Source: an uncultured Candidatus Izemoplasmatales bacterium
Lineage (GTDB): Bacteria > Bacillota_I > Bacilli_A > MAG-NZ
Assembly: GCA_964589075.1 (NCBI GenBank)
Contig: CAZPQU010000004.1
Coordinates: 59,090-123,089, forward strand
Reading direction: 5' to 3'
Length of the DNA stretch: 64,000 bases
Shown: one piece after another, positions 14,962-30,102 of the stretch
Position numbering within the stretch: the first letter of the stretch is position 1
Layout: every line of letters begins with the position of its first letter
Notes under the pieces: generated by a model
Databases searched by the model: none
Told to the model about the DNA's origin: nothing
What the model saw: the letters and a program-made list of their open reading frames with translations, nothing else
Made by a program: the position numbers and the translations under genes

Positions 14962-16213
14962 AAAAGTATGGCAAAGACACCATTTCAAACTCAGAGCAAA
15001 CTCTACTACCATGGTTAATATTGTGGAGGATACACCCCCCTAAGCAATCCGGAAGTAATTTGCATTCCATGCACTTTTTATCTTCAAAGCAGTTCAACGC
15101 TTGGTACCAATCAAATATTTTATTACCATCAAGTTGTAACTCCCCATCATCATCAATAAAACCAATTTGTGCTTTCTCTTGTGAAAGGACATTTAGACAT
15201 TTCCAAACTGTTAAATCTGGAAGAATATAAAGGAAGTTTTCATTCGTACAGGATTCACAGGATCTATTATAATGAATATTACTCACAGTATTGTATCCTA
15301 TTTCAACTGCCATTTTGTATAAGTCATTAAAATCAGCCGAAGAATTCTCATTATTACCCTCAAACATTTCTGTGTCATAAACAGCACGGAAGTATACTTT
15401 CATTTTGCTTCTATATTCTGGCAAAACAGATTCTAATGTTTCCAGTATTTCTTCATTTGAGTTGTTATTGAGGTTAATTCTTAATATAAAATGAAACTCC
15501 TCCACGTCGAGGTATTTTGATATTGTGTCATTTATCTTACCCATTATTAAATCATATGATTTTTTTCCTGTTTTAAATTTTCTAGTTTGATCGTGTGTTT
15601 CCCTAGACCCATCAATAGTAATCTGCATCATTTTGCAGTTATTCTTGATAAGTTCCGACATTATATCTTCCGTCAAAAGTGAGCCATTAGTAATTATTGA
15701 GTTTCCAAAGTCTGTGTTTACTTCCTTACATATTTGCGAAGTGTTATTTATTAGGTTAATTAATTCACTACTAAACAACAATGGTTCTCCTCCAAATAAA
15801 CTCATTTCAAGATAAGTGTAGAATTTACTATACTTCTTAACGTATTTTTCAATAGTCTCGAAATAGTCTTTCTTTTTCACGCTATTTCTAAAAGGTTCTT
15901 CAAAACAATACTCACAGGCAAAATTACACTCCATGGTAGGTACTAGTATCAAATTCAATTGAGAGTTGTCAAAGAATTTTCTGTCAAAAAGGAACTTAAC
16001 TTTCTTGAATTCGTTCTCATCTTGAAGTACAATGAAACCATTCTCTACTAACTCACTGTACTGCATATTGTTTGGAAATTTATTCATTTCCTGTACAATT
16101 TCAGGTAGAGATGTATCCGGATCAATGCTCATAAATGCTTTTGTTACGGAATTATAAATTACCTCTTCTCCATTTATTACTTTATCTATATTATAATAAC
16201 TACTTTTATACAT
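14951..16213 (-). CDS. radical SAM / SPASM-domain peptide maturase
   Basis: CNFACEYC (Cx3Cx2C), GGEPLL, and C-terminal Cys clusters (CESC...WKC...CMECKLLPDCLGGC). Confidence 0.8.
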   Translation of the reverse strand: MYKSSYYNIDKVINGEEVIYNSVTKAFMSIDPDTSLPEIVQEMNKFPNNMQYSELVENGFIVLQDENEFKKVKFLFDRKFFDNSQLNLILVPTMECNFACEYCFEEPFRNSVKKKDYFETIEKYVKKYSKFYTYLEMSLFGGEPLLFSSELINLINNTSQICKEVNTDFGNSIITNGSLLTEDIMSELIKNNCKMMQITIDGSRETHDQTRKFKTGKKSYDLIMGKINDTISKYLDVEEFHFILRINLNNNSNEEILETLESVLPEYRSKMKVYFRAVYDTEMFEGNNENSSADFNDLYKMAVEIGYNTVSNIHYNRSCESCTNENFLYILPDLTVWKCLNVLSQEKAQIGFIDDDGELQLDGNKIFDWYQALNCFEDKKCMECKLLPDCLGGCILHNINHGSRVCSEFEMVSLPYFYAE

Positions 16214-16290
16214 AATCTTTACGAGTGATATTCACTCTTCCTTTCACGTTTTTTTGGAGTTCAACAATGAGAATACTATTTTAGTTTATC

Positions 16291-16464
16291 CTATGCTGCA
16301 GTGGGACAATTTCCTGTACAAGTACAAGCATCTCTAGGCGAGATGTACAGAGATTTGCCTACTTCAGTAGCTGATTCTTCAATTTTCTTTACAGTATTTA
16401 ATTTGGCGTTTCTTATGATTGTAAACATCTTTGATTTATTATTTTTCATTGCTTCTTTTTTCAT
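16291..16464 (-). CDS. RiPP precursor peptide (57 aa, Cys-rich C-terminal core DACTCTGNCPTAA)
   Basis: AGGAG 6 nt upstream of the ATG at 16464. Lys-rich leader followed by a 3-Cys core. Located immediately upstream of the rSAM gene. Confidence 0.6.
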   Translation of the reverse strand: MKKEAMKNNKSKMFTIIRNAKLNTVKKIEESATEVGKSLYISPRDACTCTGNCPTAA

Positions 16465-16532
16465 AATATCCTCCTGAATTTTATGTATATTTGGATTACT
16501 GATAATCCATTGTATTCTCATTGTGAACCCTG

Positions 16533-18281
16533 CTAATAATACAGTTGTGACTCCCAAAGTTTTTTATACAAAGTATCAGAACTTAGTAGTTCTTCATGAC
16601 TTCCAACTTCTGTAGTCACTCCATCATTTAATAAGTAAATTTTGTCCATTCTTTTTGCAATGCTCAATCTGTGTGTAATCACTATCACCGTTTTGTCTAG
16701 TGATGAAATAAGATTATTTAACTCATTTTCTTGAATCGGATCAATTGAACTAGTCGGTTCATCCATAATTATAATCTTTGAATCAATATATAAGGATCGT
16801 GCTAATGCAATTCGTTGCCATTCTCCTCCTGAGAAATCTGAATTACCAAACTCCAGTCCTATATGGCTGTTTTTATCTTGTTTCATCCTATCTAGTCCAA
16901 CTAGGGACAGCAGTTCATCTACTCGTAAGACTGCATCTTTCTTATCCACATTCTTTAATTGTGATAAATTATCAAGAACGATATTTTCAAATAATGTGTT
17001 CTCGTATTTGTTAAATTCTTGCAAGAGTGCACTTGATTTACTAATTCTAAACCTAGTCATCTCTTTGTGCTCGATGCCATCAAAACTTATTGTACCGCTT
17101 TTTAATTTCAAATAACCCATGATTATTTTTGCCAATGTTGTCTTTCCTGCTCCATTTAAACCTACAATAGCAATTTTTTCTCCACTACTTATTTCAATGT
17201 TGACATCCTTAATTACTTTGGTAATACTTGTTGGGTAATGATACACACCTGATTTAACTGTCAATGAATTAAAGCTATGTGAAATAGTCTTCTCTTTTTT
17301 TTGATCTATAAAGGAGAAATATGGCTTAACCAAAAATATAAATTTGGAAAAGTAACCTGCGCCTACAAACAACTCTGTGTATTGCATATTTAGAATAGTT
17401 ACAGCTGAAATTGTAGCCATAAACTGTGGAAAATTAATATTCCCCATAAAAAGCAAGTAAGCTGAAAAGACATAAATTGATAATTGTGAGAGACTCTTAA
17501 TTAGACCTAGTACTGCTTTATATTTTAAAACTCTCATCTTATTTTTTAGTAGACCTTCCTGAAGTATATTTCCTGTTGAAGTCCACTTGTTTTTAAGTTC
17601 ACTATAACAATGAATAGCTTTGATTTCCTTAAAAGACCTAATTTTAGTCAAAGAATCAAACCAATCTTTTTCAACCTTTGAGAGTTCCATTTCTTTTGAC
17701 CTATATCTTACGGCAATAGTTGCCTCAATGAACTGTTCAATAAATGATGGTATTGCTGCGAGAAATATGAGAATCCAAAATGTTGAATTGAAAGTAGATA
17801 TATATTTCCCAGTAATTACAATTCCAATTATTATAGCAACTGCATCAATCACATACTCAGTAATCCTATAGATATTAATACCTGCAACTTGAGCACTCCA
17901 AATACCATTATAAAACCTTGGATCTTCATAGTTGTCTACTTGCAGATCATTGCATTTTGAATGTATCGCTGTCCTAATCTTTTTTTCAAATCGTGGTATT
18001 CCACCGAGTTGGACAACCAAACGTTTATACAAGACAATGTATCCCCTCATGAGAATGTTATATAACGAATAAACTGCTATAACTATCATGAATGCTCCGT
18101 ACCCTATCTCTTTCTCTAAGATAGTCGTGTACAACGAAAGACTTAATCTAACCCCTAAAACAGGCAATAAGGCATAAGCCATATTAACAACAATCATTCC
18201 TACAAAATGTTTCGGTAAAATATTGAAACAGAGTGACATGGAACGCCACACAACCCATTGACTAATTTTTGTCATAAACAT
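16533..18281 (-). CDS. ABC transporter, fused permease/ATPase (exporter)
   Basis: TM domain plus Walker A GLNGAGKTT, signature FSGGEWQR and Walker B IIIMDEPTS. GAGGAG lies upstream of the Met at 18281. Confidence 0.8.
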   Translation of the reverse strand: MFMTKISQWVVWRSMSLCFNILPKHFVGMIVVNMAYALLPVLGVRLSLSLYTTILEKEIGYGAFMIVIAVYSLYNILMRGYIVLYKRLVVQLGGIPRFEKKIRTAIHSKCNDLQVDNYEDPRFYNGIWSAQVAGINIYRITEYVIDAVAIIIGIVITGKYISTFNSTFWILIFLAAIPSFIEQFIEATIAVRYRSKEMELSKVEKDWFDSLTKIRSFKEIKAIHCYSELKNKWTSTGNILQEGLLKNKMRVLKYKAVLGLIKSLSQLSIYVFSAYLLFMGNINFPQFMATISAVTILNMQYTELFVGAGYFSKFIFLVKPYFSFIDQKKEKTISHSFNSLTVKSGVYHYPTSITKVIKDVNIEISSGEKIAIVGLNGAGKTTLAKIIMGYLKLKSGTISFDGIEHKEMTRFRISKSSALLQEFNKYENTLFENIVLDNLSQLKNVDKKDAVLRVDELLSLVGLDRMKQDKNSHIGLEFGNSDFSGGEWQRIALARSLYIDSKIIIMDEPTSSIDPIQENELNNLISSLDKTVIVITHRLSIAKRMDKIYLLNDGVTTEVGSHEELLSSDTLYKKLWESQLYY

Positions 18282-19944
18282 ACATACTCCTCTGAGCATT
18301 ATACAAGTTACTGTATTTGCCATTATTCATCATTAAGCTCTCATGCTTTCCAGATTCAACAATCATTTTTTGATCCAGGACTACTATGCAATCTAATTTT
18401 TTTACTGCACCCAATCTGTGTGTAACAAAAATAGTTGTCTTGTCTTTAAACACTTCTAAACACATTTCAAACATTTCCTTCTCAGCAATAGGGTCAAGAT
18501 TTGAAGTAGGTTCATCTAGAATTATAAGATTACAACTGCTCAGCAATAGTCTTGCAATTGCTAGTCTTTGTGTCTCACCTTTTGACAATGACGTTCCCTC
18601 ACTTGTAATTAGTGATATTTTTGTATTAATTCCATTGGATAAACTATTGACTTTTTCTAGCATATTAACTTTGCCTAACGCTTCAAATAATGTAGTATTT
18701 GTAGTAGTTGACTCGTTTCCAAGGAGAATAAATTCTTTAACTGTTAAGTTGAATAAATTAAAATCCTGAAAAAGGACTGCAGCTTTTATGCTTTTACATG
18801 TACCCTCATATTTTCCTTCATAAAGCCCCATTAGTATTTTTATTAAAGTGCTTTTACCTGAACCGTTTTCTCCAACTATTCCATAATGTTTCCCCTTCTT
18901 AAAGACAAAGTTAACATCAGTTAGAACAGTGTCGTTCTCAATATACGAAAAACTAATATTCTTCAAGGAAATCTCTTCTTCGCTTTCGTAGTGTGTAGTA
19001 TCATCTTCGATTTTGAAAAAATCACTTAAGGAATTCCTCAGAGTATTAAATTCCTCAATCCCCTTATACCTCTCACTGAACAGTGCTACTCTTTGAATCA
19101 CCATTCCTGTGCTACTAATTATTCCTGTATAAACACCTATACTTATAATATTCGTATTTAGCGGTACAACAAAAATAATATAAGTAATTACTCCTAATAA
19201 AATCAATGCAATCTCTGATATAAATTGATATCTAAATCTAGTTTTTCCATTTGCAATGTTGGATAACAAACCTTTATCAAAAGCACTGCTGAATCCTCTC
19301 TCCAGAAACGCTTGATGACCATAAATAGATCTCTCATATGCATACTCCCGCTTCGCAAGAGTGTCAGAGTAGTAATGAGATCTTCTCATATTTGACATAT
19401 ACTTCTTCCAAAAATCTCCTGTTTTCTTGTTGGACCATTTGATTATTATATATATAGCAATGATTAATAAAAAATATATTAAAAGAATCAGAAAGTTTGT
19501 AGAAGAAGCTAAATATGAAAAAATCATAAAGAACACCACAGCACTAATCAGTGCTCCTACTGCATCAATGGATTCAAACAAAATCGTTATAAAGTTTTTA
19601 CTTTGTAAGACTAAGTCTTGATTTTTATTTTTCTCAACCTCCAATAGATTTAATCCTTGGAGTTTATCAATTACCTTTTCCGCTACAGTATACTTATATT
19701 TTCTTTCAAACCATATTTTCACAACATCTTTTAACAAAAGCAGCATTAGTTCAATAATCATAAGTGAGCCAATTATAACTAAATACTTTATTACTTTAGA
19801 ATTTGAGTTGAAGATACTATCTATTAATAATACTTTCATTACTATTCTCACACACAATGTTGATGTAATAGCTGTTTCTATTAGAAGCAAAATAAACCTC
19901 AATCTCACATAAAAGTGCTTGTTTTCTATAGTGGCCAATTGCAT
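18262..19944 (-). CDS. ABC transporter, fused permease/ATPase (exporter)
   Basis: TM domain plus Walker A GENGSGKST, signature LSKGETQR and Walker B LIILDEPTS. Confidence 0.8.
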   Translation of the reverse strand: MQLATIENKHFYVRLRFILLLIETAITSTLCVRIVMKVLLIDSIFNSNSKVIKYLVIIGSLMIIELMLLLLKDVVKIWFERKYKYTVAEKVIDKLQGLNLLEVEKNKNQDLVLQSKNFITILFESIDAVGALISAVVFFMIFSYLASSTNFLILLIYFLLIIAIYIIIKWSNKKTGDFWKKYMSNMRRSHYYSDTLAKREYAYERSIYGHQAFLERGFSSAFDKGLLSNIANGKTRFRYQFISEIALILLGVITYIIFVVPLNTNIISIGVYTGIISSTGMVIQRVALFSERYKGIEEFNTLRNSLSDFFKIEDDTTHYESEEEISLKNISFSYIENDTVLTDVNFVFKKGKHYGIVGENGSGKSTLIKILMGLYEGKYEGTCKSIKAAVLFQDFNLFNLTVKEFILLGNESTTTNTTLFEALGKVNMLEKVNSLSNGINTKISLITSEGTSLSKGETQRLAIARLLLSSCNLIILDEPTSNLDPIAEKEMFEMCLEVFKDKTTIFVTHRLGAVKKLDCIVVLDQKMIVESGKHESLMMNNGKYSNLYNAQRSMYVYDKN

Positions 19945-20460
19945 AAAAAAAACCCCTTCTCATTTAATAATTAATGAACATTATAAACTATCAAAAAATA
20001 AATCGTACTCTATTAAGTATTGTTTACTCTTAGTAGGTCACATATATTTGAATCAGTGACACTACTAAACAATATCATAGAATACAACGTTATAAAGTTA
20101 CAAATATTCTACTTTCCTTTACCTTAGCCGTTTCAGTTGTTAAGACTGCACATTTAATGCTCAATACTAGCGATTCTAACTTTAAATTATAGCTATATAC
20201 AGACTTCTAATGAAAAAATCATAAAGAACTAATTGTATCAATAGTAGAATAGATAACATCAAACACAACAATATCAACAGAATGATTAACAGTTTTTTGG
20301 TTAAGGAATATGAACTACACGGGTATTGGAACATTATGCTATAATTCACATATATTTCACCTTAGAATAAAACGAAACCACTGGGTATTGAAGTCGACAA
20401 AATGTATAAAGTAGGCGTTGAATGGAATAGAAAAAGACCCCTCTTTTAGGGATCACAATA

Positions 20461-20551
20461 GTTGAACATTAGTACCCACATACAATAGGCTAAGGTTTTC
20501 AAAGAACTACACCACTAATATATCAAATGAGGGGGACGTATTATGTCACAT
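20461..20551. repeat. 91-nt island repeat, copy 4
   Basis: 2 mismatches to the consensus. Confidence 0.9.
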
Positions 20552-20748
20552 CAGAAAAAAAGGATAAATTATCATCCTTTTTCAATTTGAACCTGCCCCT
20601 TAAAGTTTAAATACATAACAGAATTTTTCAATTAATTTGTACTGTGTCAAGGATACCTCGTTGTTTAATTCATACTTAAATCCATTTATATAAGTTACAT
20701 AATGTTATGCTTTTTTTCCTTAGTTTACTCTTCGAAGTAAACTTTACA

Positions 20749-21573
20749 TTATACAGCACCTTTTGAATGTGCAAACATGCAAACCTCAGAACTGGTAATA
20801 TACTTTCTTTCTAAAACATCAATATATTTGTTGTGTGATCTTACTATATGATTAACAAATTCTATCTCATTTCTAAACCCCTTAATCTTCAATAGAACTT
20901 GGTCAGATGATTTACCAGAATTTATGAACTCAGACACTACTTTCTCAAGAGCGATAAATTGTTTAGAAATAGTATTAAGTCTCATAAGATAGCTTTGTCT
21001 CCTAATCACTGTTATCAACCTATTTATGTTATTCAACTCTATTGAACTCTGAAAAACATTTAAGAACTCGTCTTCTTTGTAAGCAACCCCTAAATCATTA
21101 TATTTACTATTAAACCATTTATCCCTACAATCTACAATCTCGACTTTTGCTTTTTGCAAGAGTTGTAGCTCAGCAAAGTTTGTTCTCTCAAATAAAATAA
21201 AGTCGATTTTATTTAGTAGACATGTTACATGATTCCTTAAATCGTGGAATATATGTTCAAAATTGAATCTAACTCCTTCTAGCAGTTTCTCCGATTCAAA
21301 CACTGTAGAAATGATTGTCGAATACTCCTCACCCTTTTTTAACGAATGTTTGAATGAATACTTCAACTTCCTATATCTTGAGGCATCTGAAAAAACAAGT
21401 GAGGAAATTATTTTCATTTTTTTAATGTAAACACTAAAATTGTAAGGGCATAATATCACCCGACCCTTCATTGAAACTGTAAAAACATTCTCATAAAATT
21501 TTACGCCCTTTTTATCAATGTTATGACAGTTATTTTTACAATATGCTGTGTTGTTGAATGAAGTTTTTCTCAT
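20749..21573 (-). CDS. helical protein with a histidine-kinase H-box-like motif, no ATPase domain seen
   Basis: FEHIFHDLRNHVTCLL resembles a HisKA phospho-acceptor box. No N/G1/G2 boxes found. 4-nt ATGA overlap with the upstream receiver gene. Confidence 0.35.
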   Translation of the reverse strand: MRKTSFNNTAYCKNNCHNIDKKGVKFYENVFTVSMKGRVILCPYNFSVYIKKMKIISSLVFSDASRYRKLKYSFKHSLKKGEEYSTIISTVFESEKLLEGVRFNFEHIFHDLRNHVTCLLNKIDFILFERTNFAELQLLQKAKVEIVDCRDKWFNSKYNDLGVAYKEDEFLNVFQSSIELNNINRLITVIRRQSYLMRLNTISKQFIALEKVVSEFINSGKSSDQVLLKIKGFRNEIEFVNHIVRSHNKYIDVLERKYITSSEVCMFAHSKGAV

Positions 21574-22247
21574 TTCACTATTCCATTGACAAAACTGAAA
21601 ATCATACTTATTGCCCGACCCGCTTGAACCATCCTTCCAATATCTATACCACTCGTTTCAAACTGATTAGAATATCCACTAATACTTCTACAAAACAGAT
21701 CCTCTATTATAGCAATATCCTTATTCTTGACATTATCTTTCCTTAATTCGTTTTCTATTTTCTTCCATTGTATTACCGGGTTTTTGCTGTCACTGATGAG
21801 TTTGTCAAGTTCATTCGACAGTTCATTTCCAGACAGACCTTTTTGGATAAATCCATCTAATATCTCATAGTTTATACTGATATCAGATTCATTTATCCCT
21901 GTATATAGAACAACAATTTTATTACTATATTGCGATTTTAATTGTAAGGCTGCTTCGACTCCACCGTGCTTGCTGTCATCAGATACGTGGACTCCCTTTA
22001 TGTCGCATAATATAATATCATATACTTCATAAGTGCTAATATGCTTGAAGTTATCATCAACTACAACTTGACCATATCCTAGCCTATCGATGGAATTCCT
22101 GTCAAATCCCTCGTCATCAATTACACAAATACGGTACCTTTTTCTGTCCACAGCATTCTTTGAAAACATGTTTGAATACTTATGTCTATCTTCCTTTATT
22201 GACTTCAGTTTTTCAGTACTTAAGTAATTAGTCTTTTTTACAAACAT
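21570..22247 (-). CDS. receiver (REC) domain protein with a short helical C-terminal extension
   Basis: Receiver landmarks in order: ICVIDDE, DIILCDIKG, KIVVLYTG, GFIQKG. No recognisable DNA-binding output domain. Confidence 0.5.
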   Translation of the reverse strand: MFVKKTNYLSTEKLKSIKEDRHKYSNMFSKNAVDRKRYRICVIDDEGFDRNSIDRLGYGQVVVDDNFKHISTYEVYDIILCDIKGVHVSDDSKHGGVEAALQLKSQYSNKIVVLYTGINESDISINYEILDGFIQKGLSGNELSNELDKLISDSKNPVIQWKKIENELRKDNVKNKDIAIIEDLFCRSISGYSNQFETSGIDIGRMVQAGRAISMIFSFVNGIVK

Positions 22248-22402
22248 TATTTTGTCTCCCTACCATTTTCACTAATTATACACCATAATTACTTCAGTAA
22301 AAAGCGCATGAGTTTGATAATGGACTCATAGTGATACAAACTCGAACTAATTTACTTATTGATTTCCAGTGTAGTCAGATACTAAATAGACTGGTCCTAA
22401 GA

Positions 22403-22493
22403 GTTGAACATTAGTACCCACATACAATAGGCTAAGGTTTTCAAAGAACTACACCCCTAAGATATCAAATGAGGGGGACGTATTATGTCACAT
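22403..22493. repeat. 91-nt island repeat, copy 5
   Basis: Identical to the consensus. Confidence 0.9.
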
Positions 22494-22624
22494 TTAAAAA
22501 AAAGTCCAGTTTATCGAACTTTTTTTGATACATAGGATTTCAATTTTGTAATATTTAAAAGTATCAAAAGTGTAACATTTCAACAACTCCATATATGATA
22601 GACTTAGGTCAAGGAGGTGAAGGC

Positions 22625-22816
22625 ATGAGACTTATAGACACAACAGAAATGGACGGAACTAGAATTACAATTAACGCTGATAATATATCATTCATAAGAG
22701 GATATGAAACCTATACCAGAGTATTCCTCAATACCTCAGATGCAAATTACATTAACTTTATTGATGTTAATGATACATATGAAGTATTTCAAAATTTGTT
22801 GCAACAACTACAATAA
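22625..22816 (+). CDS. small protein (63 aa), FlbD/LytTR-like beta-rich pattern, function unknown
   Basis: AGGAGG RBS 7 nt upstream of the ATG at 22625. The only gene in its cassette, and on the opposite strand to most cargo. Confidence 0.4.
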   Translation: MRLIDTTEMDGTRITINADNISFIRGYETYTRVFLNTSDANYINFIDVNDTYEVFQNLLQQLQ

Positions 22817-22843
22817 AAAAGACCATTCTATTTGGTCACAGAA

Positions 22844-22934
22844 GTTGAACATTAGTACCCACATACAATAGGCTAAGGTTTTCAAAGAACTACACCCCTA
22901 AGATATCAAATGAGGGGGACGTATTATGTCACAT
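22844..22934. repeat. 91-nt island repeat, copy 6
   Basis: Identical to the consensus. Confidence 0.9.
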
Positions 22935-23030
22935 TAAAAAAAAAGTTCAGATTTTGAACTTTTTTTTAGCAGTTAAAATATAATCTCACTACCTTGTATC
23001 TCAAACTTATCGTCATTTTACAAGGGATAC

Positions 23031-24254
23031 TTAGTTACTTAGAACTTGGGTTAGATTTTTTAGTCTAGCTAGTACTTCATCATATGTAATGACTACCACG
23101 TCACTAAAACTGTTTCTAAATAGTTCAAAAGACTTCTCTCTGTCTATACCTACTATTTCATCTAATCTTCCAATAATTACATAAGCTATTGGTCTGTATG
23201 CTTTTGTTTGATAATCCGAATGAGTATTCCTAACCGGCAAATCAATTATAAAGTTAAACCTTTGTATGCATACTTGAGTGATTGAACCACTCAATTCATT
23301 ACTAGGTCCAAAGACTGTATCGGGTCTGTAGGCGTTAGTTTTCAGCAATGGAGTAGTAGGTTTCTTAATTTCAATCACGGATACAACTTGATCGTTCCAT
23401 TTTGCAATAAAATCCGTGAATGTACTTCCTTTTCCACTGATTTTTGTTCCACCAGTGAATCTATCTTCACCTATCATATGACAAGTAGTTGGAATTACAA
23501 GTGGTAACAGAAAGGAGTTGGTAGTAAAGAACTCCTGACATTCTGGTTCTGATGGACTCCCTCCTATTAAAGTTTCAAAATCCTCGATAGCTAACTCCAA
23601 TATTGATCTTCCAATTTTAGAGTTTAGCTCTTGAAGTTTCTCAATATCAAATTTTTCTAATAAAAGGTCAATATTATCTTTATTTTCCAAGTATGCTTTA
23701 ACAGATTCAGGAGACTCAGAAACCTTTAGTAGTATCTCTGGATTAATTAATTTCAGTGTAGCCGTTATGTCTTCAATATTGTCCCCAGATAGCAAATCAA
23801 TCAAGTCATTTAGTTCTGTTTTTTTTGCAAATCTAAGCACTTTATTTACTAATTCCTTATCCTTCTCAATATTGGAGTTAAACAACAAATGTTGCTCTCT
23901 TAAAAAATAGTAATCATTATTTCCAAAAGATAAATCTGCATCTTCATACATTTTCTTAAGTTCACCTGATATGCTTATTAATTCAAAAAGGTCATCTCTA
24001 CTCAAGTCAACTTTAGTCCACTCCCCAGCTTTTAAGTTATTAAGAGAAATAGAGTCTTGGTCGCTCCAATCCTCACTGGTCTTCTTTTTTTGGTAAATCA
24101 ATTTCCCTGAAACTATTTTCTCCGGGTTAGAACTTGCTCTAACTAATTTAGGATAATAAACTAATCTTCCGGTTTTGTTACTTCTTAGTACGACACCAGT
24201 ACATTTTGAGGTCGCCCTCGAATCACTCATTACGTTTATAGATATTAATTGCAT
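23031..24254 (-). CDS. Shedu-like defence nuclease (DUF4263-type PD-(D/E)xK C-terminal domain)
   Basis: C-terminal FTDFIAKWNDQVVSVIEIKKPTTPLL ... ELSGSITQV matches the D...E-x-K plus downstream Q pattern of SduA-type proteins. 407 aa is a typical length. Confidence 0.55.
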   Translation of the reverse strand: MQLISINVMSDSRATSKCTGVVLRSNKTGRLVYYPKLVRASSNPEKIVSGKLIYQKKKTSEDWSDQDSISLNNLKAGEWTKVDLSRDDLFELISISGELKKMYEDADLSFGNNDYYFLREQHLLFNSNIEKDKELVNKVLRFAKKTELNDLIDLLSGDNIEDITATLKLINPEILLKVSESPESVKAYLENKDNIDLLLEKFDIEKLQELNSKIGRSILELAIEDFETLIGGSPSEPECQEFFTTNSFLLPLVIPTTCHMIGEDRFTGGTKISGKGSTFTDFIAKWNDQVVSVIEIKKPTTPLLKTNAYRPDTVFGPSNELSGSITQVCIQRFNFIIDLPVRNTHSDYQTKAYRPIAYVIIGRLDEIVGIDREKSFELFRNSFSDVVVITYDEVLARLKNLTQVLSN

Positions 24255-24320
24255 ATTAAGCCTCCCTATTATACTTTCATGATCGCGTTTTGTTATATTA
24301 TATCATCTCATACTCAATAA

Positions 24321-24362
24321 TAAAGTCACATTTATTTCACCATTGTGTAAAATGGATATGGT
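24321..24362 (-). promoter_or_regulatory. TGTAAC/TGTGAC-type promoter-like module upstream of the Shedu-like gene
   Basis: Minus-sense CCATTTTACACAATGGTGAAATAAATGTGACTTTA aligns with the other cassette modules. Confidence 0.35.
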
Positions 24363-24421
24363 CACTTGTACATTATATAAATGTAAAGTAAACTTTAGGT
24401 ATAATTACAAAGGAGATTAAT

Positions 24422-24988
24422 ATGAAAAAAAGTAAAAGAAAAGGTGTTATTAAACAAGTAGTTCGGGATTTGACATATTCAATTGTGTCGTTTATGTATT
24501 TGATATTATCACTGCTTGCATTTTATCAGATTGGATTTACAATTAGTCTAATACTATTGGGTCTTTTTGCATTAGCAAGCATTCTTATGATGCTGAGTTT
24601 TTTTTTAGGAAATCAACCTTATAAAACATATCTTGCGACATTCATAGGCTCATTTTTCCTCTCTGTGGGTGTTTTCTTTAATATTGCTAAGTTAATCTCT
24701 ATGATAAACAATAAGTATCTCACTGAGATTCTAATAATGGGGACTATCCTAGTTATTGGTTATGCTCCCATATTAGTAAATCACATATTATTTAAAACTA
24801 GAAAAAGTTATGTCTCGAGATTATCAATGTATGTAATTGCATTAACAATGTTACTAATAGACTACTTCCTAACGGTATTTGAGGGAGGGACTTCCCCCTT
24901 ACAAAGTGCAGTATGGATTATACTTCTTGTTGACAATATAATTCAGTTGGTAATGAAAGAAGTATCGAACCGACTAGTGGAGGAATAG
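24422..24988 (+). CDS. membrane protein (5-6 TM), function unknown
   Basis: AGGAG RBS. 188 aa, strongly hydrophobic. Confidence 0.5.
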   Translation: MKKSKRKGVIKQVVRDLTYSIVSFMYLILSLLAFYQIGFTISLILLGLFALASILMMLSFFLGNQPYKTYLATFIGSFFLSVGVFFNIAKLISMINNKYLTEILIMGTILVIGYAPILVNHILFKTRKSYVSRLSMYVIALTMLLIDYFLTVFEGGTSPLQSAVWIILLVDNIIQLVMKEVSNRLVEE

Positions 24989-25070
24989 AGTGTTTCAACA
25001 TAAAAATTCAAAAATTGTAACTTTTAGAATGATTATAAAATGCTATTATAGATTAAGGAGGACTTTTTAA

Positions 25071-25292
25071 ATGAAAAAAAACGTCCATGTAACAAAGCAT
25101 CCCGAGGGATGGCAAAGTAAAAAGGCTGGTAACTCAAGAGCGTCTTCTGTACATTCTACCCAAGCTGAGGCTATAGCAAGAGGTAGAGAATTAGCGAAAG
25201 CAGAGCAATCAGAATTACTAATTCACGGCCGAGATGGCAAAATAAGAGAAAAAGATAGTCATGGACCTGACCCAAGAAGGATTAAAGGTTAA
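25071..25292 (+). CDS. DUF2188-like small protein
   Basis: Pattern VHVTKHPEGWQSKKAGNSRASSVHSTQAEAIARGRELA...LIHGRDGKIREKDSHGPDP. AGGAGG RBS. GC content is locally higher than the surroundings. Confidence 0.55.
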   Translation: MKKNVHVTKHPEGWQSKKAGNSRASSVHSTQAEAIARGRELAKAEQSELLIHGRDGKIREKDSHGPDPRRIKG

Positions 25293-25294
25293 AC

Positions 25295-26011
25295 ATGATA
25301 GCTATATTTCAGACGGCTACAATTATTTTTGTTTTTATACCTGGAATAATGAGATCATATATGTTCTCGACTTATTCTTCAAAAAAGAACCACAAGAATT
25401 CCTGGGATTATTTAAGTGAAATAATTTCATTCTCTACCCTTATTTATTCGATTTCATTTGTAATATTTATTATATATGATTTTATATTTTTCTCGAAGTT
25501 TAAAGGGCTGGACCTACTGGGACTTGCTTTAAGAGCTGAAGATAGTGATAAAATATTAATATCGATATTCACTTTATTAATAGTATCGTTTTTTGCCTTT
25601 ATTTGGATTACACTCGAACTCAAAAGAGAAAACTCGGGACAATCTGGACCAATGAGTAAGCTAACAAATAGTGAAAACACAATTAATAACACAACTCTTG
25701 AAACCTTCTTCGATTTACATGTAAAATATCGAAATAGAGAAATAGTAGATAAACTATCTTTCGTTCAAATTTTAGATTTAAAAGAAAGAATACTTTATGA
25801 GGGATTGATTAATTCCATTCCCCTAAGTGACCAGGATGAAAGATACGAGAGAACAATACCATTACTCCTTGAAAATACCTATGCTTACAAAATGAGTGAT
25901 GATTGCACAGAGATTACTGAAGACTTGTATGAATCTCAATATTTAACTTTAGGCTTTAACCCTGAACATATGACTATAAGAATAGAAGGAGAAAGTGACT
26001 TAGATGATTAA
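25295..26011 (+). CDS. membrane protein, function unknown
   Basis: 238 aa with 4 N-terminal TM helices and an acidic C-terminal domain. Starts 2 nt after the previous stop. Confidence 0.45.
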   Translation: MIAIFQTATIIFVFIPGIMRSYMFSTYSSKKNHKNSWDYLSEIISFSTLIYSISFVIFIIYDFIFFSKFKGLDLLGLALRAEDSDKILISIFTLLIVSFFAFIWITLELKRENSGQSGPMSKLTNSENTINNTTLETFFDLHVKYRNREIVDKLSFVQILDLKERILYEGLINSIPLSDQDERYERTIPLLLENTYAYKMSDDCTEITEDLYESQYLTLGFNPEHMTIRIEGESDLDD

Positions 26012-26162
26012 AAAAGAACATCCACAAAATCCCAACCCTAATAAGGGTAAAGATTCAAGCAAAAACAGTACAGTTACTCTTCACGATCACTCTGTAAAAC
26101 GCTCAAAAACTACACCTAGGAATACTCCAAACCCTAAACCACCAAAACGACCAAAGGGTTAG
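26004..26162 (+). CDS. possible small basic protein (52 aa), absent from the supplied ORF track
   Basis: ATG at 26004 overlaps the stop of the upstream gene, with GGAGAAAG upstream. Product is Lys/Pro/Asn-rich. Followed by the terminator at 26229. Confidence 0.3.
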   Translation: MIKKEHPQNPNPNKGKDSSKNSTVTLHDHSVKRSKTTPRNTPNPKPPKRPKG

Positions 26163-26228
26163 ATGTAGAATTTTAAAGGTTGTTATACTAAGAAAAAAAC
26201 AGACCAGTTTATGAAGTGAACCCCAAAA

Positions 26229-26261
26229 GGTAGACATATGAAAAAAGAGTCTACCTTTTTT
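26229..26261 (+). terminator. intrinsic terminator of the plus-strand operon 24422-26162
   Basis: ggtagac-N13-gtctacc followed by TTTTTT. Confidence 0.55.
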
Positions 26262-26403
26262 CGTTCTTCGTCTTGTTGTTTTGTAGAAATACATCCACTC
26301 ATGAACTTGATTTATGTATTCCTCTAGTGAAGTGATATTATTAATGTAGAGAGTTTCTTTACTTATAAGATTAAAAAAGACCCACTTTGCCGGGGTCATA
26401 GAA

Positions 26404-26494
26404 GTTGAACATTAGTACCCACATACAATAGGCTAAGGTTTTCAAAGAACTACACCCCTAAGATATCAAATGAGGGGGACGTATTATGTCACAT
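26404..26494. repeat. 91-nt island repeat, copy 7
   Basis: Identical to the consensus. Confidence 0.9.
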
Positions 26495-26655
26495 TAAAAA
26501 AAAAGATGAAATTTCATCTTTTTAAATTTATTCGTTTGTTGTTTATTTTGTATCCAGTACTTATCCTTAGTTACTTAGACAACGCAATGTCATCAACGAC
26601 ATATAATCCATTCACCCTAGTAACTTTTTTCAGAAATATCTATAACAACTCACAT

Positions 26656-27018
26656 TTACTCTTTAGCTTCGTTAGTATTACTCTTCATCATCTTTTTTTT
26701 TGTTTTTCTAAGTAGTTTCCTGGTGTGTCTATCTGCTGGAAATATACTGTCGTCAACAATAAAGTAGTGAGATTTACACTCAAAATAGAAGTTACCAACT
26801 GATGGCGTCAAGGATAAAGTCCCATCATAAATTAAACACCAATCATCTTTTCCCAGTATCATATACACTGTCTCTCCGCATCCACATGGGCATTTATGCA
26901 TCACAGCTCTGTTTTTGATCGATATATAAATTACTAAATCATCAACAGTCTCTAAGTTGTGAAATTCATTAACGAATTCAGTTTTAATTTTTATCATGAA
27001 TAAAGTCACCTTCCTCAA
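26656..27018 (-). CDS. small Cys/His-rich protein (DUF6527-like, putative zinc-binding)
   Basis: HKCPCGCGETVYM...W...LSLTPSVGN...CKSHYFIVDDSIF. Overlaps the end of the E1-like gene by 35 nt. Confidence 0.45.
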   Translation of the reverse strand: MRKVTLFMIKIKTEFVNEFHNLETVDDLVIYISIKNRAVMHKCPCGCGETVYMILGKDDWCLIYDGTLSLTPSVGNFYFECKSHYFIVDDSIFPADRHTRKLLRKTKKKMMKSNTNEAKE

Positions 27019-28240
27019 TCACAGTGGTAATGACATTACTTTCCTTAGAGTCATGATAAAAATCAATTGATTGTTTCCATCTAATTACAGCTTGACAAGC
27101 AATCAAGGAATTGATTTCTGCAATTTGAATGTTTGTGGAGTAATCATCATCTTCATTATCGTAAACAATATTTTTTTCGAGATGCTTATTCATGTTACCG
27201 TCAAAGTAAACTAAGCTGCACATAGCATACATCTTACCCTCTCCCAATCTTACGCTTATTCCACAATCAATAAATGGGATTTTCTGTTCAACTAGAAATT
27301 CGACTATTCTTTCTTTGTCTGTTCCTCCATCAATGCTTATAAATACGAAATCAAACCCTTTTATTTCATCTAAGTTAGATTCATCAACATTATAAGGATG
27401 TGGAATAACATCGTACCTAATAAACGAATATCTGCTTGCCTGAAGAGTGGCTTTATTAATTTTACTGTTAACCGTCTCTAATGATAGTGCACCTGGCGTT
27501 CTAAAGGCATTGTGTCCATTAAACTCGTCACCATCAAATAAATGAATTTCAGATACAGGAGTCCTAGCTAAAAAGTCGAGTATATAAGACCCAGTTCCTC
27601 CTACACCTATTAATGCAATTTTCATTTTTCTAAATTTGTTTGCAAGAGAATTAAGATGAAGACTACTGCTATCATCATCAGGATAAATAAAAACACCCTC
27701 AGTTTCTTGATTAAATTCTACTTGTTCTGATTTCTGCTTAAGATCATCCATTGATATTCCGTCACGATCCATTACAAAAAAAGCAGGATCACTGATGTAC
27801 TCATAATATTGAATTATTTTCTCATAATGGGAATTATAGTATTTACATTCTGGTACAGTTGACATTAAAAACTTTGTAGTAAGACCATTAGAATATGGGA
27901 ACTGTACTGCTCCTGGTTTGATTAAATCCTTTATTTCCTCACCATCTATCTCATGTGGAAATTCTCCATCAAAATAGACGGTATGTGAGTTTTGGGCAAC
28001 TGCAGGAGTCATTATTTTTGTGGTGGGGTGCTGGACCATAATGAATGCTGGGATCCCTCTCAAAATAAACGTTTCAATAATAAGGCCAAGTTTTATTGAA
28101 CCATCTTTGCAAATATATGGCACATTTGTGATTGCGATATTTTTATTTCTTAACAGTATTACATCACAACCACGTTCTGTGACCACCTTTAGCTCATTAT
28201 TAAGATCCTTTCGTGTTACCAATGCTAAATACCATGCCAT
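26984..28240 (-). CDS. ThiF/E1-like adenylyltransferase with an uncharacterised ~200-aa N-terminal domain (possible E2-like)
   Basis: Rossmann motif KIALIGVGGTGSYILDFLARTPVSEIHLFDGDEFNGHNAFR, then FVFISIDGGTDKERIVEFL...PFIDCG, as in ThiF/MoeB/E1 folds. Confidence 0.6.
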   Translation of the reverse strand: MAWYLALVTRKDLNNELKVVTERGCDVILLRNKNIAITNVPYICKDGSIKLGLIIETFILRGIPAFIMVQHPTTKIMTPAVAQNSHTVYFDGEFPHEIDGEEIKDLIKPGAVQFPYSNGLTTKFLMSTVPECKYYNSHYEKIIQYYEYISDPAFFVMDRDGISMDDLKQKSEQVEFNQETEGVFIYPDDDSSSLHLNSLANKFRKMKIALIGVGGTGSYILDFLARTPVSEIHLFDGDEFNGHNAFRTPGALSLETVNSKINKATLQASRYSFIRYDVIPHPYNVDESNLDEIKGFDFVFISIDGGTDKERIVEFLVEQKIPFIDCGISVRLGEGKMYAMCSLVYFDGNMNKHLEKNIVYDNEDDDYSTNIQIAEINSLIACQAVIRWKQSIDFYHDSKESNVITTVIEEGDFIHDKN

Positions 28241-28427
28241 CTACTGCATCTATGCAGTTTCCTTTCAATAACTTTGACCCTTGATAAGTAACAGTGTACT
28301 TCGGTTTTTCACCGGGACCTGTTTTCTTTCCAAATAATTTTACTACGTCTTTATAGCAAACTTCCTTTTTTTTATATGGAAAAGATTTTTTTCCAATAAA
28401 AATTGTTATCTCTTTTTCATTATTCAT
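28200..28427 (-). CDS. ubiquitin-like beta-grasp protein (single multiubiquitin-type domain)
   Basis: 75 aa. Alternating beta pattern ITIFIGKKSF...VCYKDVVKLFG...YTVTYQG...IDAVDGMVFSIGNTKGS. First gene of the operon. Confidence 0.45.
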   Translation of the reverse strand: MNNEKEITIFIGKKSFPYKKKEVCYKDVVKLFGKKTGPGEKPKYTVTYQGSKLLKGNCIDAVDGMVFSIGNTKGS

Positions 28428-28471
28428 TTTGTTACCTCCTTTTTCTATATTATATCACCTTCTATGCACTT

Positions 28472-28520
28472 GAAAAGTTACAAATTTTCTACTATTGTGT
28501 AAAGGATGTGGGGTTGAATA
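28472..28520 (-). promoter_or_regulatory. conserved cassette promoter-like module (TGTAAC module)
   Basis: Minus-sense CCTTTACACAATAGTAGAAAATTTGTAACTTTTCA. TTTACA-N17-TAACTT lies 45-90 nt upstream of the Ubl gene. Confidence 0.4.
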
Positions 28521-28551
28521 AAAAAAGACCTCTAATTTAGGGGTCATAGAA

Positions 28552-28642
28552 GTTGAACATTAGTACCTACATACAATAGGCTAAGGTTTTCAAAGAACTA
28601 CACCCCTAAGATATCAAATGAGGGGGACGTATTATGTTACAT
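28552..28642. repeat. 91-nt island repeat, copy 8
   Basis: 2 mismatches to the consensus. Confidence 0.9.
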
Positions 28643-28746
28643 TAAAAAAAAATCCCTTTTATCGGACTTTTTTTGATTCAGTTGATCTAAACTTCTTATA
28701 ATTAAAAGTTGACTAAAGTGTAACTTTTATAGCGAATTTCTCACCT

Positions 28747-30102
28747 TTAGAATCCCAGCCTTCGTGAATATCTTTCATATAAACTGAGCATTAAAATCTC
28801 TATTTCGGTCATCGGTACACCAATAATCTCTAGCATACATGCTGTATGCACTCTCCTCAATGTCAATACGTCTGCATAATCTATCGATGTAAAGTTCGTT
28901 TCAGAACCATGTGCAACATCATTTCTATTCTTTAGCACTCTTTGTACAATATCTTCAGGTTGCTTTTTGTTACCACGTAATCTCAGGTAGTATGAGAATT
29001 GCACACCATCCTTGAAAGAAACATTTAAGTATCTATTGAACATAAACTCGAGTTTAGTTCTAGTAGTCACTTTACTTATAGTACTAACAAGTTCAGCAAA
29101 ATCTTCTTTATATGTATCTCCATGTTCTTTTATTAGTGTTTTCTTTATCACTTTAATTTTTCCTAAATTTGAGTGACCCTTAAAGTGACCTTTGTCTATC
29201 TTCTTCTTCAATAGCTTGTATGAGTACTCAATTGCTGCAACAGCATTTAAAATATCAAATTTGCTATTACTCAACTCTTGGGATCTTACAATATAATCTA
29301 TGTCGACTTCCTTCTTATCTATTGCTTCAATCAAGTTACCGAACACATGCGAAATATCATCAAACATTAGTGAGTTAGAATAATTCTTATTATAAGTCCC
29401 TTCATCCCTAAAGTCTATCTCGCAAAATGTAGTTCCATAAACATACTCGTGACTCAGTACTATATATGATGCTTGGGTGAAATCATTCATCTTTCTTCTA
29501 AGTAAAAAACTAAAAACATAGTTTAGAAGACCTCTCAGGTAAACCATTTCATCGAATGAATTAATTTTCGAGAACTCAATATATGCTCTTGGTACCTCTT
29601 TATTATAATTGTTTTGGCTAGGAACATTACAATAGGAGATCCTCATAGTTGTTTCTATTTTCCCTAGATGTAGTTCATAGTTTTCTCCTATATGACATGC
29701 AAAAAGGTCTTCATCGACTTGTTGCATATTAAACAACTTTATTTTCTTTGGAGTTAAATAAAAGTCATCTAAAGCATCAGAGTAAAATCTCACCGCACCA
29801 GATTTATATAACTCGAAGGGATTGTTGTCTGAAGTAGCTTGCACTTTAAACGATGCATCGTAGGCTGATACTTTTTCATTAAAGAACCATTTCCCAATGC
29901 TACAATAACTAAAATAGTCTCTTTTATCTTCATCTAGTCTTACCCATTTGTGCGATATCAACCTTCTGAAATCCAGTTGATCCCCTAATTTTGGAAAATC
30001 ACCCTTTCTATCAAGCGTGAAATGAAGTTCATCTATATTGTAATAGTATCTACCCTTGTATCCTTCAAACTCGAACGGTCCACTCTTTGAAAAATTCTCC
30101 AT
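28747..30102 (-). CDS. HEPN-like (ApeA/Abi-type) protein, candidate abortive-infection effector
   Basis: C-terminal R-x4-H motif in VLKNRNDVAHGS. 451 aa, single-gene unit directly after repeat copy 8. Confidence 0.4.
   Translation of the reverse strand: MENFSKSGPFEFEGYKGRYYYNIDELHFTLDRKGDFPKLGDQLDFRRLISHKWVRLDEDKRDYFSYCSIGKWFFNEKVSAYDASFKVQATSDNNPFELYKSGAVRFYSDALDDFYLTPKKIKLFNMQQVDEDLFACHIGENYELHLGKIETTMRISYCNVPSQNNYNKEVPRAYIEFSKINSFDEMVYLRGLLNYVFSFLLRRKMNDFTQASYIVLSHEYVYGTTFCEIDFRDEGTYNKNYSNSLMFDDISHVFGNLIEAIDKKEVDIDYIVRSQELSNSKFDILNAVAAIEYSYKLLKKKIDKGHFKGHSNLGKIKVIKKTLIKEHGDTYKEDFAELVSTISKVTTRTKLEFMFNRYLNVSFKDGVQFSYYLRLRGNKKQPEDIVQRVLKNRNDVAHGSETNFTSIDYADVLTLRRVHTACMLEIIGVPMTEIEILMLSLYERYSRRLGF

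Follow-up and report, generated by a model that had tools for sequence, protein, structure and literature searches.

At positions 26656-28427 of the window (the 64,000-nucleotide stretch of DNA from an uncultured Candidatus Izemoplasmatales bacterium that was analysed here), ORF calling placed three overlapping minus-strand ORFs, flanked by copies 7 and 8 of a repeat that occurs in eight copies. The question raised by this locus is whether the trio represents a new, minimal ubiquitin-like (Ubl) conjugation system or a member of a family already known. The original prediction of a Ubl/E1-type conjugation operon has been borne out by the Pfam ThiF match, by BubA profiles and by synteny. Its designation as a "minimal or distinct variant" is not supported, since the architecture is that of the published Type II Bub (6E.2) operons, and the same unit recurs in 75-78 of 80 genomes. 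This architecture was described and biochemically dissected in 2024-2026, and the claim of novelty falls. In our assessment, the cassette is very probably a divergent but complete copy of Type II Bub, also termed the 6E.2 or DUF6527 operon.

Organization and expression signals of the operon

The first gene, bubA (28200..28427, minus strand), encodes a single-domain Ubl protein of 75 aa with the C-terminus ...FSIGNTKGS. The second, bubBD (26984..28240, minus strand), encodes a 418-aa E2-E1 fusion (DUF6791 + ThiF), the sequence of which includes IGVGGTGSY, LFDGDEFNGHNAFR, YICKDG, VQHPT and PECKYY. The third, bubE (26656..26997, minus strand), encodes a DUF6527 peptidase of 113 aa when read from an ATG start. 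The predicted overlaps of 41 and 35 nt among the three genes were confirmed by ORF calling. The longest bubE ORF (26656-27018), which carries the CPCGCG...C..H motif, begins with a TTG codon at 27018 and comprises 120 aa; the start is more probably the ATG at 26997, which yields 113 aa and an overlap of 14 nt with bubBD. This ATG is preceded, 9 nt upstream, by GAGGAAGGTG, and the public gene call likewise starts there. The ribosome-binding site of bubA, AAAGGAGGT, is located 6 nt upstream of its ATG.

A promoter-like site (28449..28476, minus strand), recognized by its match to the consensus, comprises TTTTCA, 16 nt and a TG-extended TATAAT, with 10 of 12 consensus positions matched and the TG present. 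It lies just inside the cassette and adjoins repeat copy 8 (28496..28674), the right cassette boundary. The left boundary is formed by repeat copy 7 (26348..26526), the inner edge of which contains a perfect hairpin of 12 + 12 nt (26500..26523; 100% complementary). This hairpin, which was also seen by folding and precedes a run of T on the minus strand, is likely the terminator of the operon; the terminator scan gave no call there, owing to the AT-rich stem. [quoted passage not shown] On the evidence of their Pfam matches (DUF6791, 1.6e-17; ThiF, 1.7e-12; DUF6527, 1.2e-17), the three are real genes and not chance ORFs.

Assignment to Type II Bub

By definition, Type II Bub combines a Ubl protein, an E2-E1 fusion and a DUF6527 protein, usually without a JAB peptidase (bioRxiv 10.1101/2024.11.21.623953). 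The reference system is BubA-BubBD-BubE of E. coli ZDHYS365, described by Ye, Gong, Chambers and Corbett (bioRxiv 10.1101/2024.11.21.623953). The ORFs of the cassette and their Pfam matches give the same complement in the same order, BubA, BubBD and BubE with no JAB peptidase, and the three reading frames overlap as they do in E. coli. Also shared with Type II Bub are the DUF6791 + ThiF fusion, with catalytic Ser, Arg and Tyr residues together with Lys and His but no conserved Cys; a DUF6527 protein in which a C4 zinc site is combined with a Ser/His dyad; the terminal Ser of the Ubl protein, with Thr as its residue -4; and a tRNA-associated mobile element as the genomic location. The present analysis shows the gene content and order, the family membership of the three proteins, the conservation of every published catalytic residue, the synteny of the trio in other genomes and the genomic context.

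In the PADLOC 2023 library, no model recognizes the first or the third protein, and only Cap2-type "E1-E2" models match the E1 region of the second. Since this library contains no Bub models, its scan is uninformative with regard to Bub membership.

BubE, the DUF6527 peptidase

The third protein had been described as DUF6527-like, and the Pfam search confirmed this (PF20137, 64 bits, 1.2e-17); its public annotation reads PF20137:BubE, 113 aa. In experimental work, BubE was identified as a Ser/His peptidase that binds zinc at a C4 site and strips BubA from its targets (Ye et al., bioRxiv 10.1101/2024.11.21.623953). In the window protein, the zinc site comprises C36, C38, C40 and C74 and the dyad S66 and H77 in the ATG numbering, all verified at the codon level (C43/C45/C47/C81 and S73/H84 in the TTG numbering). 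The residues of the C4 site and of the dyad are each shared by 77-79 of 79 sequences. The C-terminal tail is Lys-rich, in contrast to the hydrophobic tail of typical Type II members.

These data bear directly on the earlier statement that the trio contained "no recognisable deubiquitinase", which no longer holds: the DUF6527 protein is BubE, a published peptidase, with the dyad and the zinc site intact here. With the "missing" deubiquitinase accounted for in this manner, the cassette can be regarded as a regular member of a family already described. It is therefore very unlikely that the trio is a new, minimal Ubl system devoid of a deubiquitinase, in which the Cys-rich protein would be either the target or an E3-like partner and an N-terminal Cys of the 418-aa protein would be the E2 catalytic residue. 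Such a reading would accommodate the lack of a JAB/JAMM peptidase and of PADLOC 2023 models for the first and third proteins, and the authors of the Bub study initially weighed a transfer role for BubE (bioRxiv 10.1101/2024.11.21.623953). However, published BubE cleaves BubA fusions and removes conjugates in a dyad-dependent manner, and the four cysteines form the conserved structural zinc site of the peptidase. Moreover, the 418-aa protein has no conserved cysteines, and the architecture, already listed as Type II Bub, occurs widely.

BubA, the ubiquitin-like protein

A word-index homologue search with BubA alone returned only BubA itself, and homology was therefore established with profiles built from the neighbours of BubBD homologues. 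An HMM of 75 Type II BubA C-terminal domains, from which the window sequence had been left out, matched the 75-aa protein from end to end (36 bits, E 1.2e-10), while profile A3 matched E. coli ZDHYS365 BubA (PDB 9cd2) at 9.5e-24. The homology to the crystallised E. coli protein extends as far as the terminal Ser (pairwise E 2e-8). The Pfam Multi_ubiq match (13.2 bits, E 0.11) remained under the cut-off. Unlike E. coli BubA, which has three beta-grasp domains, the 75-aa window protein would have one.

The terminal Ser is present in all 75 Type II BubA homologues recovered and in PDB 9cd2, and Thr at position -4, another feature of Type II BubA in the survey of homologues, is likewise found in the window protein. 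Position -2 is exceptional: here the window BubA carries Gly, which occurs in none of the 75 homologues, whereas 66 of the 75 have Lys or Arg, such that its tail reads TKGS as opposed to the typical TD[KR]S. The idea that a C-terminal Gly is exposed once the final Ser has been removed is not supported, given the invariance of that Ser and the absence of Gly at -2 from the 75 homologues. C-terminal processing was hence rejected as the default model; since Ser is the conserved terminus of BubA, trimming to expose a Gly is not expected. The overlap between bubA and bubBD is almost always 26 nt among the homologues surveyed, compared with 41 nt in the window. The constraints on Type II BubA (terminal Ser, Thr at -4 and the 26-nt overlap) bear on the manner in which an E1 activates a C-terminus other than glycine.

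BubBD, the E2-E1 fusion

Pfam divides BubBD into DUF6791 (residues 17-188) and ThiF (residues 201-338; 47 bits). The DUF6791 model, PF20590, scored 64-66 bits (E 1.6e-17 and 3.7e-18; cut-off 25) and matched 21 of the 21 homologues tested; NCBIfam PRK06153 models scored about 295 bits, below their equivalog cut-offs. The AF2 model of the protein (pLDDT 81) found its best PDB matches in BubCD chains of Citrobacter (E 1e-11 to 1e-9), with additional Foldseek matches to UBA5, ThiF and MccB.

The E1 adenylation domain (27008..27652, minus strand; about residues 197-411) contains the GxGGxG motif at 212-217, in which G212, G214, G215 and G217 are invariant in alignment A2, as are D236, D238, R247, K263 and D304. 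The crossover-loop Tyr367 (codon 27140-27142, minus strand) is invariant in 30 of 30 sequences. The columns of Tyr367 and of Arg247 (codon 27500-27502, minus strand; both codons verified) have median positions of 339 and 218 in the homologues, compared with Y342 and R219 in E. coli BubBD. In the E2-like domain (27677..28192, minus strand; residues 17-188, alignments A2 and A4), the proposed catalytic Ser127 (codon 27860-27862, minus strand) is kept in 29/30 sequences of A2 and 21/21 of A4, and its aligned position has a median of 105 in the homologues versus S106 in E. coli. His86 (codon 27983-27985, minus strand) and Lys141 (codon 27818-27820, minus strand) are invariant. In the E. coli enzyme, the substitutions S106A, Y342F and R219A abolish conjugation, and the Bub family works through oxyesters, not thioesters (both bioRxiv 10.1101/2024.11.21.623953).

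The view of the 418-aa protein formed from its sequence can accordingly be kept in part. Its C-terminal half is indeed a ThiF/E1 domain, and the N-terminal half, for which an E2-like function had been thought conceivable, is an E2-like module (DUF6791), but the catalytic Cys envisaged there is not supported: the homologues conserve neither C44 nor C134 nor any of the other cysteines, and the residues used by the family correspond here to Ser127 and the crossover-loop Tyr367. Catalysis by Cys, in either the E2 or the E1 part, was ruled out because no Cys is conserved.

In the AF2 model, the E2-like domain runs in the order helix, beta-strands, Ser-bearing loop and long helix, and a model of residues 17-188 by themselves reached a pLDDT of 78.7 and a pTM of 0.73. 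Foldseek detected no significant match of this model in the PDB (best E 0.3); among its top 50 non-significant matches were 18 E2/UBC-type chains (170-190 aligned columns, TM 0.2-0.39). A scan at E up to 10 detected no Prok-E2 Pfam family in the E2 domains of 21 homologues, and the sequence profile of the domain matched nothing in the PDB and gave no link to BubB or Cap2. Two lineage-specific insertions are present, at about residues 63-80 and 163-169, and the FSxKP motif has Val in place of Lys two positions past the serine. This divergent sub-lineage helps to define the indispensable residues (S127, H86, K141, R247 and Y367), and the Lys of FSxKP is not among them.

The composition of the fusion also bears on whether the locus could be part of a sulfur-carrier or cofactor pathway of the ThiS/MoaD type, with a ThiF/MoeB-like enzyme, which we regard as extremely improbable. 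Such a pathway would explain the Foldseek match to ThiF and the weak matches of ThiF, MoeB and TcdA models to residues 195-340. However, the ThiF/MoeB equivalogs reached only 15-34 bits against cut-offs of 152-376 (TIGR02356, 33.8 versus 275), and the enzyme has neither a rhodanese domain nor a conserved Cys. The small protein ends in KGS, with no ThiS or MoaD model match and no C-terminal Gly-Gly, and the partner domains are DUF6791 and DUF6527. No thiamine or molybdopterin genes were found near the trio, which is surrounded by cassettes of defence type.

Comparison with related conjugation systems

Type I Bub (6E.1) is represented by BubAB-BubCD-BubE of Citrobacter sp. RHBSTW-00271 (PDB 9ea4, 9ea8, 9eae and 9eav). 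Its E1 domain is the best structural match of the window protein (Foldseek E 1e-11) and has a crossover-loop Tyr; a BubE peptidase is common to the two systems, and oxyester chemistry would be as well. In contrast to the window trio, Type I Bub fuses its Ubl to the E2 (BubAB), with cleavage following a conserved Gly, and its E1 to a JAB domain (BubCD). Neither fusion occurs here: the Ubl protein is a separate 75-aa product that ends in Ser, and the N-terminus of the E1 carries DUF6791 instead of JAB.

The Bil system (BilABCD) may be likened to the cassette in its stand-alone Ubl protein with E1 and E2 activities, its occurrence in defence islands and its attachment of the Ubl to lysines of targets. 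Bil, unlike Bub, relies on thioesters formed by catalytic cysteines of the E1 and of a separate E2, and on a JAB deubiquitinase; the Bil E1 has tandem adenylation domains plus a Cys domain. The cassette, with its three genes, gave no JAB match and has no conserved Cys. Anti-phage activity has been demonstrated for Bil, whereas in the literature to mid-2026 no Bub operon has been shown to protect against phage.

The resemblance to Cap2/Cap3 of Type II CBASS would consist in an E2-E1 fusion accompanied by a conjugate-cleaving peptidase that serves as a negative regulator. Cap2, however, conjugates a CD-NTase and not a Ubl protein, its chemistry is Cys-dependent, Cap3 is a JAB peptidase, and the system includes a nucleotide-activated effector; no CD-NTase, JAB peptidase or effector is encoded between the two repeats. 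That the trio is a remnant or variant of Type II CBASS, of a 6A-MBL system or of Bil is scarcely credible, even though the PADLOC "E1-E2" (Cap2) models match at 1e-9 and the NCBIfam 6A-MBL cap2_3 model at 6e-6. These matches are confined to the nucleotide-binding region of the E1 (residues 198-358) and never include the N-terminal domain. The MBL component is missing as well, and so are the separate Cys-E2, the JAB peptidase and the Cys-domain E1 of Bil. The best structural match is BubCD, and synteny analysis disclosed no CD-NTase or JAB partner that co-varies with the unit.

Proposed mechanism

For the Type II Bub trio of the window, transcription would start at the operon's own promoter by repeat 8, proceed through the three genes and end at the hairpin of repeat 7, and the 41-nt and 14-nt overlaps would couple their translation. 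For the chemistry from the binding of BubA to BubBD up to cleavage by BubE, we infer the course from published work on the Bub systems of E. coli ZDHYS365 and Citrobacter. The single beta-grasp domain of BubA would dock on the E1 half of a BubBD dimer, where the carboxylate of its Ser75 would be adenylated with ATP by means of GxGGxG, D236/D238 and R247. The crossover-loop Tyr367 may then attack the adenylate to form a BubA~Tyr oxyester. BubA would subsequently be handed to Ser127 of the E2-like domain, probably that of the partner protomer, with the assistance of H86 and K141, and be moved from BubBD onto a lysine of a target. Finally, BubE, as a zinc-stabilised Ser/His peptidase, would cut the BubA-target conjugates and in doing so restrain or reset the pathway.

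Relatives and sub-lineage

The trio is syntenic across 80 genomes from many phyla, with bubA found upstream of bubBD in 75 of them and bubE downstream of it in 78; the three genes thus recur as a unit (75-78 of 80 genome loci). The window copy is a divergent member: its BubBD is about 35% identical to typical members, and its best relative shows 49% identity while all others show at most 39%. The closest relative is a metagenomic locus (L082) with a trio of 77, 411 and 113 aa. The insertions in the E2 domain are common only to the window copy and one metagenomic relative; at 49% identity, L082 retains the same insertions, gene sizes and overlaps, which indicates purifying selection in this sub-lineage.

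This conservation is relevant to the view that the operon is a decaying or inactive copy, carried as a passive passenger in the cassette array, to which we attach very little weight. The divergence from all relatives but one (at most 39% identity), the odd residues at position -2 of BubA and in the FSxKP motif, and the two insertions in the E2 domain would suit such a copy. Nevertheless, none of the three ORFs is disrupted, their translation signals are good, no catalytic residue has been lost, and the insertions, gene sizes and overlaps are preserved in L082.

It is rather doubtful that the window copy and L082 together constitute a distinct sub-type of Type II Bub, present as a self-contained unit in an undescribed integron-like array. 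Its BubA could be defined as a minimal Ubl protein of 75-77 aa with the tail [IV]GNT-x-x-[SA] and a terminal Ser or Ala; its E2 domain could be characterized by the lineage-specific insertions and by Val or Arg at the lysine position of FSxKP; and the unit could possess its own promoter and terminator. If so, a terminal residue other than Gly (Ser or Ala) would be a direct substrate for adenylation, and Bub would belong to a set of defence cassettes, Shedu and HEPN among them, that a dedicated site-specific recombination system shuffles.

Genomic context

The cassette is situated at the far end of an integrative island at a tRNA-Leu gene, with an integrase (50198-51160), in a repeat-delimited array. 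Bub operons have been found in tRNA-inserted mobile elements (bioRxiv 10.1101/2024.11.21.623953), but, in contrast to the described Type II Bub operons, the window operon has no Cap-type regulator and is one unit of such an array. The array could be delimited by a near-identical core of about 95 nt that forms the distal att arm of the island; any circular or excised forms would have their junctions at a GTTGAAC core. The supposition of a defence-like neighbourhood proved correct: SduA of Shedu (PADLOC, 6e-58), a HEPN protein and a protein resembling PDC-M43A are encoded in neighbouring cassettes. Judged by this context, the operon may serve in defence against phage or in the stress response. 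A compact, regulator-free copy beside Shedu and HEPN adds guilt-by-association evidence for a defence role of Bub, and the cassette, at about 1.9 kb, is a small construct suited to heterologous work in Gram-positive hosts.

A prophage nature of the rest of the island was not supported, as a PHROG match was absent in 9 of 10 large ORFs and the tenth matched only a family of unknown function. Similarly, the repeat core was discarded as a known RNA (Rfam gave no match, either at the gathering threshold or with E values up to 1 admitted), and folding of either strand gave z-scores of only about -1.6. No exact matches to the core were present in the metagenome and viral collections searched. For a glutamate-synthase-like protein, matches of about 60% identity came from mixed taxa, most often under Bacillota/Clostridia names; an uncultivated Bacillota as host is tentatively suggested by this result in combination with the following features. 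The DNA has a G+C content of about 32%, with strong Shine-Dalgarno sites and a c-di-GMP-I riboswitch.

Assignment to Type II Bub

The three minus-strand genes at 26656-28427 are a divergent member of an already known kind of system, Type II Bub. [quoted passage not shown] The composition of the trio is exactly that of the published definition. The original prediction of a Ubl/E1/DUF6527 operon with defence-like surroundings thus stands, while its reading as a new "minimal or distinct variant" gives way to a described architecture, and the supposed lack of a peptidase falls with it. All testable defining features of Type II Bub were found, independent confirmation of the E2 fold apart, and by analogy the locus would operate in the same manner.

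In Pfam, the 418-aa protein carries DUF6791 (residues 17-188, E 1.6e-17) and ThiF (residues 201-338, E 1.7e-12), and the bubE product matches DUF6527 (E 1.2e-17). Multi_ubiq, also expected originally, matched the 75-aa BubA weakly (13 bits, under the cut-off), and no Prok-E2 family was detected. By NCBIfam, the 418-aa protein falls within the PRK06153 group (∼295 bits); since it scores below the equivalog cut-offs, it is considered a divergent member. Identity as Type I Bub, Bil or Type II CBASS, or as a ThiS/MoaD sulfur-carrier pair, was rejected by the Pfam, PADLOC and NCBIfam results.

Operon organization and conservation

As originally described, bubA (28200-28427, 75 aa), bubBD (26984-28240, 418 aa) and bubE (26656-27018, 120 aa from a TTG start) overlap by 41 and 35 nt and lie between copies 7 (26348-26526) and 8 (28496-28674) of a 179-nt repeat; every sequence motif cited at that time was found in the ORFs. 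The start of bubE is more likely the ATG at 26997 (113 aa, 14-nt overlap), because this codon lies 9 nt downstream of GAGGAAGGTG and is used in the public gene call. A strong ribosome-binding site, AAAGGAGGT, precedes bubA, and a TG-extended promoter-like site is located at 28476-28449. At the 3' side of the operon, repeat 7 contains a perfect hairpin (12+12 nt) and its T-run.

With one genome scanned per species, more than 566 relatives were found, and synteny was counted in the best 80 of these loci (many bacterial phyla and some archaea). The trio is indeed kept as a unit elsewhere: BubA was directly upstream of BubBD in 75 of the 80 (four of the five exceptions being truncated by contig ends) and BubE directly downstream in 78, with a bubA/bubBD overlap of 26 nt in most. 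The nearest relative, from a metagenome (JGI 3300040801), is 49% identical, has the same trio (77, 411 and 113 aa) and shares two insertions in the E2 domain of BubBD. All remaining relatives among 2859 matches are at most 39% identical to the window copy.

Predicted catalytic residues of BubBD and BubE

The published Bub chemistry uses no cysteine; E. coli BubBD requires R219 for adenylation, the crossover-loop tyrosine Y342 and the E2 serine S106, which in Type II is accompanied by Lys and His (bioRxiv 10.1101/2024.11.21.623953). The window protein was aligned with 29 homologues drawn from the 2859 matches at E ≤1e-10. The counterparts S127, R247 and Y367 occupy invariant or near-invariant columns, whose median homologue positions (105, 218 and 339) match the E. 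coli numbering, and H86, K141 and the nucleotide-binding motif are invariant. None of the cysteines of the window protein is conserved in this alignment, including those of YICKDG and PECKYY, from which an E2-like catalytic Cys had originally seemed conceivable.

The full-length protein, modelled with AF2 (pLDDT 81), best matched Citrobacter BubCD in the PDB (E 1e-11 to 1e-9), followed by UBA5, MccB/PaaA and ThiF. The N-terminal domain modelled alone (pLDDT 78.7, pTM 0.73) comprises N-terminal helices, a beta-meander, the S127 loop and a long helix, the order expected for a UBC-like domain. In Foldseek, 18 of its top 50 matches were E2/UBC-type chains over 170-190 columns, with a non-significant best E of 0.3, and neither Prok-E2 Pfam families nor PDB sequences matched the domain. 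For these reasons its putative E2 fold is supported through homology to characterised BubBD only.

According to the Bub paper, BubE strips BubA from targets as a Ser/His peptidase and contains a C4 zinc site (bioRxiv 10.1101/2024.11.21.623953). The corresponding C43, C45, C47, C81, S73 and H84 (TTG numbering) are kept in 77-79 of 79 sequences, and the DUF6527 protein would supply the deubiquitinase thought to be missing. The codons of all defining BubBD and BubE residues were checked and confirmed.

The C-terminus of BubA

A word-index search with the 75-aa BubA returned no homologue. An HMM was therefore built from 80 genomes, using the C-terminal domains of the ORFs that precede BubBD homologues and excluding the window sequence; among 420 window ORFs it matched BubA alone, over its full length (36 bits, E 1.2e-10). 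A profile including the window sequence matched the crystallised E. coli ZDHYS365 BubA (PDB 9cd2, 9.5e-24), and pairwise alignment with its third beta-grasp domain (28% identity, E 2e-8) extended to the final residue.

The terminal residue is Ser in 9cd2 and in all 75 Type II BubA homologues recovered from the best 80 loci, none of which ends in Gly. Their consensus is ...FNVTATD[KR]S, with Thr at -4 in 66; Gly occurs within the last six residues in four and at -2 in none. The window protein retains T72 and S75, G74 being peculiar to this copy, and BubA of the closest relative ends in Ala (...VGNTTKA). Removal of the Ser to expose a Gly, as first envisaged, runs against this family pattern. 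Activation presumably takes place directly on the small terminal residue, whether Ser or Ala, consistent with the report that E. coli BubA and BubBD are active in vitro when BubE is absent (bioRxiv 10.1101/2024.11.21.623953). The sections of the Bub papers covered contain no discussion of such a Ubl C-terminus lacking glycine.

The island and its repeat array

The operon lies in a ∼40.6-kb integrative element between an intact tRNA-Leu (51233-51315, minus strand), adjoined by a tyrosine integrase (50198-51160, plus strand), and a copy of the tRNA 3' end (10658-10694 versus 51220-51256; 37 nt, 92% identical). [quoted passage not shown] A Cap-type regulator, present in over half of catalogued Bub operons, is lacking beside the window copy. 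Nine of the ten large ORFs at 31.8-49 kb lack a PHROG match and the tenth matches only a family of unknown function, and the element is thus not demonstrably a prophage.

The repeat-delimited cassette array (10632-28674), situated within this element, is a more unusual object than the Bub operon itself. Its eight 179-nt copies start at 10632, 12349, 13697, 20405, 22347, 22788, 26348 and 28496, each with a near-invariant ∼95-nt core (GTTGAACATTAGTACCC...GTCACATT) between A/T-run hairpins. The core showed no Rfam match, no strong fold and no exact match in metagenome and viral collections. The 37-nt copy of the tRNA 3' end is joined to the core of the first repeat. As this repeat carries a fused 24-nt 3' piece of tRNA-Leu, the core resembles a distal att arm of the island that recurs between cassettes; this would make the array integron-like, or a product of tandem accretion.

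The cassettes, mostly transcribed from the minus strand, encode a trypsin-like protease, a radical-SAM enzyme with two ABC ATPases, a PDC-M43A-like protein, Shedu SduA (PADLOC 6e-58) and the Bub trio. A defence role of the Bub cassette is suggested from genomic context alone, as the literature consulted, up to mid-2026, reports no phage protection by any Bub operon.

The cassette at 13993-19944 (minus strand), in which a 339-aa protein without known function accompanies the radical-SAM enzyme and the two ABC-type ATPase proteins, is perhaps less a defence system than a cluster for peptide modification and export. Repeats 5 and 6 (22347-22966) are 441 nt apart start-to-start, with ∼260 nt and no ORF between them, which looks like an empty cassette position. 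In the cassette adjoining Bub (23031-26011), SduA (23031-24254, minus strand) is accompanied on the opposite strand by genes for 188-aa and 238-aa proteins without family match and a 73-aa DUF2188 protein. Just past repeat 8, a 451-aa protein (28747-30102, minus strand) has a C-terminal HEPN domain (RiboL-PSP-like, 27.4 bits, slightly under the cut-off; no PADLOC match).

Other features of the window

Two neighbouring paralogous genes at 6584-9240 (minus strand) both carry Fer4_19 and CDGSH iron-sulfur modules, one with a fused glutamate-synthase domain. Their DNA repeats are 80% identical, and the nearest named homologues (∼60% identity) are of mixed taxa, Bacillota/Clostridia names being commonest. 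A c-di-GMP-I riboswitch (56643-56724, plus strand, 53.9 bits) lies just ahead of a 1274-aa ORF (56705-60529) and overlaps it slightly.
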